The position numbers are program-made. Shown piece after piece: positions 6,001 through 9,000 of a stretch of 11,413 bases of DNA; within the stretch, counting starts at the first letter, position 1, and every line of letters begins with the position of its first letter. The stretch is from a virus (taxonomy: Duplodnaviria > Heunggongvirae > Uroviricota > Caudoviricetes): IMG/VR virus record IMGVR_UViG_2568526681_000003, one strand, 5' to 3'.

Positions 6001-9000
6001 CGGCAGGCTTTGAGAAAAGCATTCTGTCCGGTTGTCGCTTCCGGCACGGCGTGCTCGCGCGGTTTCAATGCGGCATCGTCTACGCGAACACCGGGAAAAT
6101 CTGGCGGCAGCGGGTCAACATAACGAGCGGGCTTCTTATTCAACCATTGCTCAATCTCGGCGCGTCGGCAATGAATCGCGTCGCCGGGCTGGATGACTTG
6201 CCGCAACCCAGTGTCAGAGCGCTGTTTTTGTTTCTTCGGTTGAACACCGTGCAGCGTTCGCCACTCCCGCAAGGTCATCGCGGAGCCATCTGCATTGTAA
6301 TAAAACTCTTCGGTCTTTGTGTTGTATGCCGCCTTAACGGGTTTACGCTTTACAGGGCATATCTTGGAACGTCGAATAACAATCCCGTCAGCGATCATTT
6401 GCTGTACATCTGCGTTCGCAGTATTGAGCGGGTCAGCGTCGGCAGCTTGCACAAGCAGGCGGCGTAGGTTTGTTGGCATGGTGAAATCTCCAGAAAATAG
6501 GGGTAGGTATTAGCTCAGGTTGGGGCGGTGGTACAGTTGCGGCAGACTCTCTGCCCTTATAGAGGTTTTCATGTCGGCAACAGTGTCAGTGTCTTTATCT
6601 GCCTTAATAGTCACTTTCAAAATCGGAGAGTTTGTCTCGCTTCGGGAGTTATTCTTTCTCCTTAGTAGATACTTTCATTAGGTCAATTTTTAACCACCTC
6701 CTCGCTAAGCCTTACTGAGCCTGGGCTGGCAATACTTAACAACGCGATTTTTGTCGGTCAAAAGCGGGAAAGTAATGCTCTATATCTCCTTATTAGTAGC
6801 CTTTAAAATTAAAAATATAAGTTACTGATATCAATAGATAATTATGAAAGTGACTATAGTGATAAGTATCGCTAGATACGCAGAGCGAGCGCGGCGCAGC
6901 CGAAACAAGCGAGCGCCGAACGGATGACGGATGGCAGACCGTAGGACTGACAGACGGCAGACAGTGAAGACAGTAGGACAGGTGACAGACAGTAGACCGT
7001 GACGGCGTGCCATAGCTGGCAGTAGCACAGCAGGCAGTAAGACCGATGACCAACGGCTAAGACCTGAAAGGAAACGAACAAGGAAGATGATTGAATGCTA
7101 CAGAAATGAATTGAAGATGTTATGAAGAATACCGTACCGATATCAGGATAAGATTGAATACAGAAGTAATACCGATACAGAGTACCGTCCCACTACACAA
7201 CCCCGCCGCGTTGACCGCCCGGCAAGCACGGTTGCGTGGAGGGCCGAGCATCAGCAGCGGACGCAGGCCGATGAATGAGCCGAAGGCGAATGAAAGCGGA
7301 CTAGCGGACGCGAGAAGCGTAGCCAGTGGTGAGCGTGAAGCGATACACTGATTAGGAGATGGGGATGTAGGGGAAGAACCCTTTTTTGTACATGCATATA
7401 AAATGCAGCTTTAAAGCAAGCCAAGCAGCACCAGCCCGCGTCTCGTCTGGCTTTGTAGATGGACAACACAGCCTTTGATCCCTTCCCCTGCCCCATCCCT
7501 CGAATTGTTCAGTGATAAATCACATTCACAATCTGATCTTGATGCTCATCGTCTGGCACGGCTAAAGCCCCGCCACCTCTTCACATCAAGAGCCGCAAGT
7601 GATACGAAATACATTATAAATCATAGCATTAAGACATCACGCATAACATAACCCTCTGAAATAAATACAAAAGCTGTAGGTCATCCATCACCCACAGCCC
7701 AGTAACGGCCAGTCGTAGCACCTCGTTCGCTTGTAGGTCATCATCCCTCGCCCTTGTTCCAGTGGCGTTTAACGGTGCTCACGCTAACGCCGAGACGCTT
7801 CGCTACCTTCGATTGAGACAGCCCCTCACTCCGCAGCTCCTGCACCTTTTGAGTGGTGTCGGTGGCTTCCTTGCGTCCCAGCTTAACGCCATTGGCTTTC
7901 GCCTTCTCCAGCCCGTCCAGCGTCCTCTCACGGATACGGTTTCGCTCGAACTCAGCAAAAGCTCCAAACATCTGGCGGATTAGCTTGCCCTCAGATGAAG
8001 TCAGATCACGCGCTGGCAGGTCAAGCGACACCACCTTCACGCCGCGTTCTAGCAGCATGTCGATGGTCTGCTGTACGTCGATGTTGTCACGCCCCAGCCT
8101 GTCCAGTTTCAGCACGACAAGCTGATCTCCCGCTTCCAGCTTGTGCTCAACCATCGCCCGAAACTTAGGGCGCTGCATAGCCTGAACACTACCGGAAATG
8201 TCCTCGCTGATTACCCGGCTTTCAGGCACCTTGTACCCGGCACGCTCAATAGCCAGCACCTGATTCTGCGTATCCTGCTCGCGTGTTGAAACGCGGCAGT
8301 AGATAAAAGTCCTCATGGTTCACCTCACCCGTCTGGTATCACAAAACGGTAGCATCATTTCATTGGTGGTATCATTAAGTCAAACCCTAAATTAATGACA
8401 CCAGATAGTAATCACTCAGACAGGTAGCAAGAATCGAACGATTGATGACACTAAAGCCAAAACAATAACGACAGCCAAGAGAAGCGCCAAGCATCAACGC
8501 AAAGTGCTTTAACAGTGGAGATTCAGGAGTGATTTAGCGTTTCAAGAGAAGAATAACCCTAACCCACAGCCTCACGGTCAGAACATGAAACAGGGTCATA
8601 AACGCCACAGAGGAAGGCAAATCGATATACAGCCCGCCCAGCCTTCGGCTGGGAGAGGCGCACGGGGGAAGTTGAAGCCTTAACCGTCGAGGGAGGGGCA
8701 ACCATAAACGTGCAATTTTTCAAGCCGGGGATTCAGTTATAGGCTAACGGTAGAATGCGGCTTGATACGGGGAGTGTTCACGCATCTGGTACAAATACCT
8801 AACTTCGTGAGCAACTGCCCCATATAGGCCACATCTGGCAAGTTTTGAGGTTATATAATTTACCATTCACGCTTTTACTTAATTGCAATCGGCGCGGATG
8901 GGATTGCTGTCAAAGAAAGAACCCGCATTTTGAAGTCTTCATACTGTTCCCCCTCACGCAATGAAAGTTCAGTTAAAGAATAGAAACGGTCGGTTGATGG

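Follow-up and report, generated by a model that had tools for sequence, protein, structure and literature searches.

The stretch of DNA analysed here, referred to below as the window, comprises the 11,413 nucleotides of the IMG/VR record IMGVR_UViG_2568526681_000003. In a 99.5%-identical record from E. coli A16, the window lies within a genomic island adjoining tRNA-Leu, whose genes encode an integrase, a YafO toxin, an HNH endonuclease, a "phage capsid protein", small hypothetical proteins, a helicase, a serine recombinase and an XcyI restriction–modification (R-M) pair. The helicase and recombinase genes, both on the minus strand, are separated by 1.26 kb in which the A16 record carries no annotation. 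Our open reading frame (ORF) bounds agree with this, as did a first-pass annotation of the window, which had singled out the interval as a gene-free gap. Judged by its sequence, the gap is in kind a non-coding control region of a probable new satellite family, derived from its presumed helper, a phage of the genus Bonnellvirus, although this does not explain its mechanism. The features on which this assignment rests are collected in Table 1.

Much of the gap is occupied by a plus-strand tract that is depleted in T. Earlier hand counts, 17 T among the 200 nt of 6881–7080 and 64 among the 500 nt of 6881–7380, proved exact, and a sliding T-content scan identified these two intervals as the minima of the window, with the lowest T (or A) fraction among all 200- and 500-nt segments on both strands of the 11.4 kb (median 0.24). 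The plus strand contains 65–67% purines, in line with the earlier estimate of about two-thirds. The remaining Ts lie mostly within stop codons, as had been noted: 14 of the 17 in 6881–7080 fall in TAA, TAG or TGA (about 32% expected), as do 33 of the 64 in 6881–7380. The repeats described earlier are only partly present. GRCAGAC does occur four times within 6933–6990, and its eight copies in the whole window (2.6 expected) were reached by 1 of 200 shuffles. CAGTRRNAC, reported as five copies, has three exact ones (6971–7043), a number reached by 14 of 200 shuffles, and the 63-bp-spaced duplication exists, but its copies (repeat D4) are only 74% identical.

A decayed gene, for which the first-pass annotation had proposed a check, was rejected: of the eight ORFs that lie in the gap or extend into it, on either strand, none has a credible Pfam or PHROGs match, and reading frames across the tract are disrupted by 1-nt indels among related islands. 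The Rfam search proposed at the same time gave no match in the whole window at the gathering threshold and nothing within the gap at permissive thresholds. The sole sub-threshold match lies outside the gap (ctRNA_pGA1, 8632–8725, plus strand; 20.9 bits against a gathering threshold of 45, E = 0.42). This match arises from the CCCAGCCTTCGGCTGGG hairpin together with a further stem and a run of U, and probably reflects a mere terminator-like structure.

The origin of the tract became apparent from comparison with phage genomes. The interval from 6816 to 7022 or 7045 matches 15 Bonnellvirus records, in each case within a ~1.5-kb non-coding stretch that runs from the endolysin gene (the last late gene) to the SAMase gene (the first early gene), and island and phage genes are oriented alike relative to it. 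The first-pass annotation had recognised no known element here; the tract is in fact homologous to the Bonnellvirus left genome end. Most of the phage records are arbitrarily permuted, and the annotated 259-bp terminal repeat of phage J8-65 was used to place the ends. Two apparent match sites in phage glasur are one match split by the arbitrary start of the record, and the possibility that the matched DNA is the terminal repeat itself was discarded, as the J8-65 repeat places the match inside of the repeat and not within it. The segment is 87–95% identical to the phages, whereas the capsid genes of island and phage share only ~65% nucleotide identity, which indicates that the segment was either recently exchanged or is strongly constrained. 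That the core of the gap is helper-derived DNA is, from these alignments, essentially certain.

On the phage top strand, the endolysin gene is followed by a ~75-nt module ending CCTCCC/TCGAC, with the slash marking the left boundary of the repeat, and by the repeat. Next come ~270 nt of further A-less DNA, a bottom-strand promoter, an AT-rich stretch, strong sigma70 early promoters and the SAMase gene. In J8-65, the left-pointing promoter lies ~546 nt from the left genome end and faces that end. From promoter to end module, the transcript-sense strand contains 7.5–12% T over 503–589 nt in phages glasur, Kc261, J8-65 and LIMEzero, compared with 22–23% genome-wide, and these four tracts contain no run of three or more T apart from one TTT at the extreme end of the glasur tract. 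A promoter predicted to fire leftward, followed by a T-less tract and the terminal repeat, is thus a conserved unannotated feature of phages from two genera. The order of parts, namely repeat, asymmetric short-repeat tract, RNA polymerase (RNAP) promoter, AT-rich DNA and sigma70 early promoters, is also that of the left end of the T7 group, and the copied tract is presumably the positional analogue of the T7 short-repeat array SRL. T7 transcription is all rightward, however, and relative to the T7 left end (SRL and the promoter and secondary origin phiOL), the Bonnellvirus-type promoter points leftward to the genome end and its tract is T-less for ~500 nt. The genomes of phiKMV-like phages have been described as transcribed forward only (PMC3765740).

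The island copies the promoter and the promoter-to-repeat tract but not the terminal repeat itself. One could regard the segment as a recombination scar, recently acquired from the helper and without a role in the island. Its composition would then serve the phage alone, at the leading end of the injected DNA, where, in our view, it keeps single strands unstructured and the DNA free of sigma70 -10 boxes, of start and stop codons and of almost every palindromic restriction site that contains A/T. Identity to the phages far above that of the shared genes, together with the loss of the module from several sister islands, would fit such a scar. We nevertheless consider it improbable, given that T-depletion runs ~300 nt past the phage-like segment and into the core that every island has kept, that three island lineages have an intact promoter variant corresponding to phage types, and that conservation of the region ranks among the highest in the gap.

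The promoter copy itself, directly upstream of the T-depleted tract, is likely to be recognised by the single-subunit RNAP of the phage. Its 19-mer at 6846–6864 (GAAAGTGACTATAGTGATA) exactly matches two glasur sites, one directly after the RNAP gene on the coding strand and the other in the left-end terminal non-coding region on the opposite strand. Promoters of the T7/T3/SP6 type are ~23 nt long, with an A/T-rich part at -17 to -13, specificity bases at about -12 to -7, TATA at -4 to -1 and G at +1. The interval 6842–6864, consisting of TTATGAAAGTGACTATA followed by GTGATA, lines up at ACTATAG with the T7, T3 and SP6 consensus sequences, and it has an A/T-rich 5' part, TATA at -4 to -1 and G at +1. 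The bases at about -11 to -7 are constant within each phage (GTGAC in glasur, GCTAC in Kc261 and GTAAC in J8-65), and in all three the motif occurs in several copies, 3' of the RNAP gene and 5' of DNA-metabolism genes. Pantoea phage LIMEzero is a member of another genus; its depositors placed "putative phage specific promoters" at both equivalent positions, and we found a third, leftward copy at nt 656. Some motif copies stand at start codons, at 665 and 14871 in J8-65 and at 21114 in glasur, where the encoded N-termini are alike (MKVT(I/V)…N).

Variants of this promoter differ between islands along lines seen among the phages. The copy in the window is of the glasur/ROV85/RZ4 type, that of the altidsur/LF82-23/BHUENT7 type is found in both the Kluyvera island L009 and the Logan element L022, and island L010 carries a further variant. 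The first-pass annotation had noted sigma70-like -10 hexamers in the AT-rich DNA here. A scan of the plus strand of that block gave no sigma70-like site, and one of the hexamers, TATAGT (6855–6860), is the core of the phage-type promoter.

Four further units of related sequence, designated a–d, lie on the minus strand between the plus-strand promoter and the helicase gene. We scored candidates with a position weight matrix (PWM) built from phage promoter copies, for which shuffled windows yield 0.38 hits of at least 10. Unit a has TGAAAGTGACTAT in common with the glasur promoter copies and forms with the plus-strand promoter a 17-nt inverted repeat (I1) that is 94% complementary, while TAATGAAAGTATCT in unit b exactly equals a promoter-type copy of J8-65. 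In islands L008 and L011, unit c reads ATGAA(A/G)GCTACTATAT(C/T)GGG, the "middle" promoter type of Kc261; L008 is a Kosakonia island, and Kc261 a Kosakonia phage. All four units follow the pattern ATGAARG-NNN-CTAYWAAGG, but the specificity positions vary from one unit to the next and may correspond to several helper types. An alignment of the 420 nt upstream of the helicase across related islands revealed three or four promoter-like units in every island, each conserved in position. We infer that units a–d are promoters directed at the helicase operon.

Unit c and the plus-strand promoter stand back to back inside an AT-rich block that separates the divergent promoter sets. The block, which the first-pass annotation had delimited correctly, is conserved at 0.93–0.96 in close relatives, among the highest values in the gap. 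[quoted passage not shown] The AT-rich block is indeed flanked by direct-repeat families, and it adjoins the gene for a 614-residue helicase whose N-terminal ~250 residues have no assigned domain; in PICI-type satellites, the origin adjoins a replication gene. However, the repeats are 66–83% alike rather than near-identical and resemble helper promoters, the tract is common to phages that have no homologue of the island helicase, and in L008 the left half of the gap is different although the helicase is 94% identical. Sets of near-identical iterons that flank AT-rich DNA and are specific to the adjacent Rep or helicase, as in a PICI/SaPI-type iteron origin, were not found in the gap, and we judge such an origin distinctly unlikely. 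Of the origin reading in the first-pass annotation, the cis-acting non-coding region, the AT-rich block and the direct repeats hold, but the iterons and the tie between tract and helicase are not supported. A transcription-activated origin of the T7 type, on the other hand, is possible. T7 origins are phage promoters next to AT-rich DNA, and here the plus-strand promoter adjoins the 85-nt block, which lies upstream of it between the divergent sets.

Table 1. Features of the gap and its surroundings, ordered by position in the window
Feature	Position	Strand	Basis and remarks
Helicase ORF, left flank of gap	4635–6479	-	ORF calls
Promoter-like unit d, ATGAAAACCTCTATAAGGGCAGAG, nearest helicase start	6549–6572	-	Positionally conserved in all aligned islands; same motif class as a–c
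Promoter-like unit a, ATTTTGAAAGTGACTATTAAGGCA, toward helicase	6600–6623	-	Phage-promoter PWM score 19.8
Promoter-like unit b, CTAATGAAAGTATCTACTAAGGAG	6658–6681	-	PWM score 10.7; direct-repeat family D2; position occupied in all islands
AT-rich block between divergent promoter sets	6781–6865		21% G+C
Promoter-like unit c, ATTTTAAAGGCTACTAATAAGGAGATATAG, back to back with plus-strand promoter	6782–6809	-	D2 family; kept in nearly all islands
Segment homologous to helper phage left end (promoter and short-repeat tract)	6816–7045	+	87–95% identity
Putative Bonnellvirus single-subunit-RNAP promoter copy, ATTATGAAAGTGACTATAGTGATA	6841–6864	+	24 nt; predicted +1 = G6859
T-depleted tract, part 1	6866–7080	+	10% T; GRCAGAC and CAGTRR repeats, motifs also in phage tract
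A-rich middle segment with 63-bp-spaced GATTGAAT...ACAGAA duplication	7081–7163	+	Repeat D4, 74%
T-depleted tract, part 2 (205-nt core)	7164–7368	+	Kept in every island of the family; no phage match
Hairpin and T6, intrinsic-terminator-like	7369–7387	+	Terminator scan; closes T-poor unit
Highly conserved non-coding block	7480–7620		Conservation 0.96–0.97
Terminator-like hairpin 3' of recombinase gene	7671–7700	-	11 pairs, T-rich tail; terminator scan
Recombinase ORF, right flank of gap	7741–8316	-	ORF calls
Segment B, ~75-nt module (…CTTGAAAAATTG…TGCCCCTCCCTCGAC…CCCCCGT)	8655–8730	-	87–93% identical to phages; outside gap

Downstream of the promoter, the tract consists of three parts. The first ~75 nt of the predicted transcript are near-invariant among phages and islands, but beyond ~200 nt the islands share with the phages the T-less composition and not the sequence. 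The middle segment is restricted to a subgroup formed by the window, L009, L010 and L022. Part 2 is 95–99% identical in L013 and L015, whose helicases are only 78–82% identical, and an invariant block within it, ACCGTNCCACTAC...CCGAGCATC, persists even in the divergent islands L012 and L014. The hairpin and T6 with which the first-pass annotation had closed the tract were recovered by the terminator scan and are kept in 8 of 10 islands, while L012 and L014 have a different hairpin in which pairing is retained.

The first TTT run 3' of the plus-strand promoter is that of the hairpin-T6 element, and a polymerase starting at the promoter would be expected to produce an RNA of 532 nt. The predicted folding of this RNA is unremarkable (minimum-free-energy z = -1.56 relative to shuffles). 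A structured RNA was rejected: the RNAalifold covariation term is unfavourable, and compensatory change is confined to the terminator stem. The RNA:DNA hybrid energy of the tract lies ~2.8 standard deviations below the window mean, which speaks weakly for an R-loop, and on the glasur bottom strand the genome-wide minimum of hybrid energy is the phage tract. The first-pass annotation had put forward a ~0.5-kb purine-rich plus-strand RNA. Its anatomy is right, with a promoter at 6841–6864 and no TTT before the terminator, but its promoter class is wrong, as the promoter is not of the sigma70 type and is a copy of the putative helper-phage RNAP promoter. Nor would the RNA be antisense to every island gene, as had been suggested; it overlaps none of them unless transcription reads through into the recombinase gene.

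Such an RNA could in principle work in trans or as an insulator, for example as a decoy or sponge for a factor of the helper or host, as an antisense block to read-through from the recombinase gene into the helicase operon, or as a regulator of a late function of the helper. A defined plus-strand unit with its own predicted promoter and terminator, the near-invariant first ~75 nt, and a clustering of Ts in stop codons that would prevent translation of the RNA all accord with this. The lack of conserved structure or covariation outside the terminator stem, the lack of an Rfam match, and the fact that beyond ~200 nt only composition is common with the phages speak against it, and we assign a trans-acting RNA a low probability. 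Shared composition without shared sequence indicates, in our view, that a physical property of the tract matters. Without U-runs or rU:dA pairs, the transcript would escape premature release and form a very stable RNA:DNA hybrid, and the strand is also devoid of self-complementarity.

Several properties of the island as a whole suggest what its helper may be. The entire element is present in Logan contig L022 (14,774 bp), which has a copy of a 25-nt tRNA-Leu att repeat at either end. The island is therefore ~14.75 kb long, 35% of the 42.4-kb phage genome. Its capsid protein (phrog_267) is 57% identical in amino acid sequence to the major capsid protein of the Bonnellvirus glasur, its 231-residue scaffold aligns only with the C-terminal ~100 residues of the 411-residue phage scaffold, and a 69-residue protein resembles the N-terminus of the phage small terminase (TerS). 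Pfam and PHROG scans of ten window ORFs identified in the island core only the T7-type capsid, the scaffold, a weak gp18-like match and the SF2 helicase. A tblastn search of the island proteins against glasur gave no further matches, and the island gene lists contain no portal, tail, large terminase (TerL), DNA polymerase or RNAP gene. A small integrant that encodes a capsid of its own, a short scaffold and a TerS-like protein, yet has no genes for a portal, a tail, TerL or polymerases, is built like a phage satellite. Members of the helicase family occur only in Escherichia, Enterobacter, Cronobacter, Citrobacter, Kosakonia, Kluyvera and Trabulsiella, which are largely the genera from which Bonnellviruses have been isolated, and 58 of 5426 complete E. 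coli genomes (~1%) carry the element. On this comparative evidence, the island is very probably a Bonnellvirus satellite.

The island shows the general hallmarks of phage satellites (an integrase, the size, an incomplete set of virion genes and helper-derived cis signals) but does not appear to fall into a described family. The cfPICIs are marked by portal, protease, connectors and TerS plus TerL, the PICIs by AlpA, Pri-Rep and Ppi/Rpp or cos, and P4 by Sid, Psu, delta and the alpha primase. None of these markers, AlpA, Pri-Rep, Sid/Psu and a full head module of the cfPICI type included, is listed by PGAP for L001 or among the genes called in L022, which sets the island apart from the cfPICI, PICI and P4-like families. 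Like P4, PICIs and SaPIs, it is integrated, is about one-third the size of the helper genome, and carries capsid-size-related genes and a small-terminase-like gene. It also borrows cis sequences from its helper, as P4 does with the cos site and late promoters of P2 and E. coli PICIs with helper cos; SaPIs have a TerS of their own. Unlike them, however, its presumed helper is a virulent podophage of the T7 supergroup, and the island mimics a single-subunit-RNAP promoter and a terminal-repeat-type end rather than a cos or headful pac site. Searches of the literature, as far as it was searchable, turned up no account of a satellite of T7-like, Autographiviridae or Bonnellvirus phages. We tentatively suggest, at somewhat less than even odds, that these islands form a family not yet described, made up of integrative satellites of ~14.7 kb whose helpers are virulent podophages of the T7 supergroup (Bonnellvirus/phiKMV-like) in Enterobacteriaceae. 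Such satellites would be induced by the helper RNAP through an array of promoter mimics, and the copied leftward promoter/T-less module would be an unrecognised cis element acting through R-loops in end replication, concatemer formation or packaging.

Given the borrowed promoter and tract, the island is probably switched on, copied or packaged only upon phage infection. We favour, with a probability of about 0.5, a reading in which the divergent promoters respond to the helper RNAP and the U-poor ~0.53-kb RNA, or its transcription, acts in cis. An infecting phage would make its RNAP, which would activate the minus-strand units (6549–6809) and thereby the operon from helicase to capsid. On the plus strand, the same polymerase would start at the late/terminal-type promoter (G6859), transcribe the T-depleted tract and stop at the hairpin-T6 element, yielding a U-poor, purine-rich and largely unstructured RNA. 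The promoter and the first ~180–200 nt were copied from the left end of the helper, where the same promoter is predicted to fire leftward, through a comparably T-less tract and the terminal repeat, as far as the cut site at the genome end. With transcription diverging from it, the AT-rich block would become unwound, and the U-less RNA could remain paired with its template in an R-loop. In T7 and in mitochondria, priming is carried out by single-subunit RNAPs, and the opened DNA with its hybrid could serve as an entry or priming site for the replication machinery of the helper, in the manner of a promoter-dependent T7-type origin. Alternatively or in addition, it may prepare the DNA for concatemer processing and packaging. 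That the tract acts in cis in one of these two processes is about as likely as not, or slightly more likely.

The proposed arrangement resembles R-loop origins such as those of ColE1 (RNA II), the T7 primary origin and mitochondrial OH/CSB, in that a dedicated promoter precedes a purine-rich non-template strand with positive GC skew. It differs from them in that no G-quadruplex or RNase H processing site was identified in the island tract and that favourable hybrid energy is not unique to it. Several observations weigh against the cis-acting, RNAP-responsive reading, this lack of uniqueness among them. Part 2, although conserved in all islands, has neither a phage counterpart nor a predicted structure. 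In T7-type origins, the phage promoter or promoters are followed by an AT-rich region for the RNA-to-DNA transition and primase loading, whereas in the island the AT-rich block lies upstream of the plus-strand promoter. Several phage motif copies coincide with annotated coding-sequence starts (MKVT...), so that their recurrence could partly reflect coding; promoter and coding constraints may overlap.

The distribution of the module among islands is also uneven. The gap is modular in its left half. Islands L009, L010 and L022 are like the window, while L008 and L011 lack the Bonnellvirus-type plus-strand promoter and keep only ~50 nt of the tract, which abut a promoter unit of opposite orientation. 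Islands L012–L015 also lack this promoter, keep no phage-type tract and have unrelated sequence instead. Because sister islands thus persist without the plus-strand promoter module, it must be exchangeable or dispensable. The replacement sequences of divergent islands, of which those of L013 and L014 were searched, gave no match in the phage collection, and a phage origin of these variable regions was not retained. Finally, the right-boundary motif of the phage repeat, GGGTATCTGTCTCTTTTCG, is found in all Bonnellviruses (glasur, ~42247–42269; L002, L003, L005 and L023–L025) and presumably resembles the T7 class II pause/termination signal ATCTGTT at the T7 concatemer junction. A search of the window did not find it, and the island accordingly has no full mimic of the junction.

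A second helper-related element, segment B, lies outside the gap on the far side of the recombinase gene. Its phage counterpart is the module that abuts the left boundary of the direct terminal repeat (CCTCCC/TCGAC) in Bonnellvirus, J8-65 and LIMEzero, and it ends at the annotated repeat of J8-65. Segment B occurs in all eight related islands, even where its flanks are unrelated, and it is the best candidate for a mimic of a packaging (pac) or cut site. Within the conserved block at 7480–7620, an inverted copy of the TGCCCC-TCCCTCGA box of the phage genome-end cut site lies at 7487–7503 on the plus strand (TGCCCCATCCCTCGA, compared with TGCCCCTCCCTCGA on the opposite strand in segment B), and it is present in all islands that retain the block. 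IMG/VR scans with the part-2 core and segment B returned one chromosomal-type contig and four phage contigs, which carried no terminus information. A third similar box, situated a little to the left of the window, marks the 3' end of the HNH gene (for example at 11548 in L022).

These elements form the basis of the main rival to the reading proposed above, according to which the tract and segment B are a packaging signal, recognised by the helper terminase or the island TerS-like protein, that marks DNA for cutting and encapsidation. The promoter would then matter only because T7-type concatemer processing needs passage of the RNAP. In the phage, the tract directly adjoins the terminal repeat and segment B stands at the left boundary of that repeat; segment B is conserved in all islands and phages, a second, inverted cut-site box is present, and the island encodes both a TerS-like protein and an HNH endonuclease. 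Yet in the island ~1.7 kb, including the recombinase gene, separates the tract from segment B, compared with ~0.35 kb in the phage, and half of the sister islands retain segment B without a phage-type tract. The gap also lacks the make-up of a T7-type concatemer junction or pac site, a terminal repeat with conserved cut-site sequences to either side, as its tract corresponds to DNA inside of the repeat and the right-boundary motif is missing. We therefore regard a packaging signal as unlikely, though a stronger contender than the trans-acting RNA, the iteron origin or the scar, each of which is made less likely by the points raised against it.

Under the RNAP-responsive reading, the two elements could be complementary, with the gap supplying an origin and segment B a junction. 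T7 plasmid packaging needs a T7 replication origin and a concatemer junction, as stated in the title of Chung & Hinkle 1990, cited in PMC13236587 and PMC13172314. The island similarly combines a candidate promoter-type origin (the gap) with a candidate junction (segment B), both helper-derived. It departs from the plasmid requirement in that the two modules are split by the recombinase gene and the right-boundary motif is missing.

If this interpretation is correct, it would have several implications. Known enterobacterial satellites (P4, PICI and cfPICI) exploit temperate siphoviruses and myoviruses. Lytic T7-type phages have uses in phage therapy and biotechnology, and a satellite that exploits them would extend the host range known for satellites. 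It would also place a built-in source of interference with such phages in about 1% of the complete genomes of E. coli. Mimicry of RNAP promoters would be a very direct way of sensing the helper, with the island silent until the phage polymerase appears. For the phages themselves, the backward promoter and T-less tract make it testable how T7-like phages expose, duplicate and process their terminal repeats.

Further observations concern the surroundings of segment B and the remainder of the island. Directly inside segment B lies a second A-rich, T-poor stretch (8384–8685, plus strand; 15.6% T), after which a sigma70-like promoter, TTGACT-18-AATGAT with a TG, faces the recombinase gene (8354–8383, minus strand). 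The succession of segment B, asymmetric stretch, sigma70-like promoter and recombinase recalls the phage left end, with its end module, leader, host promoter and first gene. A ~80–90-nt stretch overlapping segment B (8639–8764) occurs in more than 200 other E. coli genomes, in contexts that include the variable region of a P2-like prophage (L007, AR_0372, 12001–12091) and a leuX remnant near a recombinase gene (L006, 12001–12082). Cassette exchange or island remnants may account for it.

Many public assemblies contain the element as a separate contig of 14.1–15.0 kb. That the Logan contigs of ~14.5–15 kb end at virion termini was rejected, because L022 is bounded by the att repeat, which points to an att-bounded assembly and not to packaging termini. 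Separate contigs fit branching of the assembly graph at att, that is, polymorphism of presence/absence or excision within samples. The cargo between segment B and att differs between islands, with an XcyI-type R-M system in the window (8875–10802) and an Eco29kI-type system in L022 (576–2431), which suggests a hotspot for defence genes. A 79-residue ORF (2735–2974, minus strand) exists in two allelic types, with 96–100% versus 54–59% identity, that track the presence or absence of the Bonnellvirus-type plus-strand promoter/tract module among the islands; it may encode a partner protein or be merely linked to the module.

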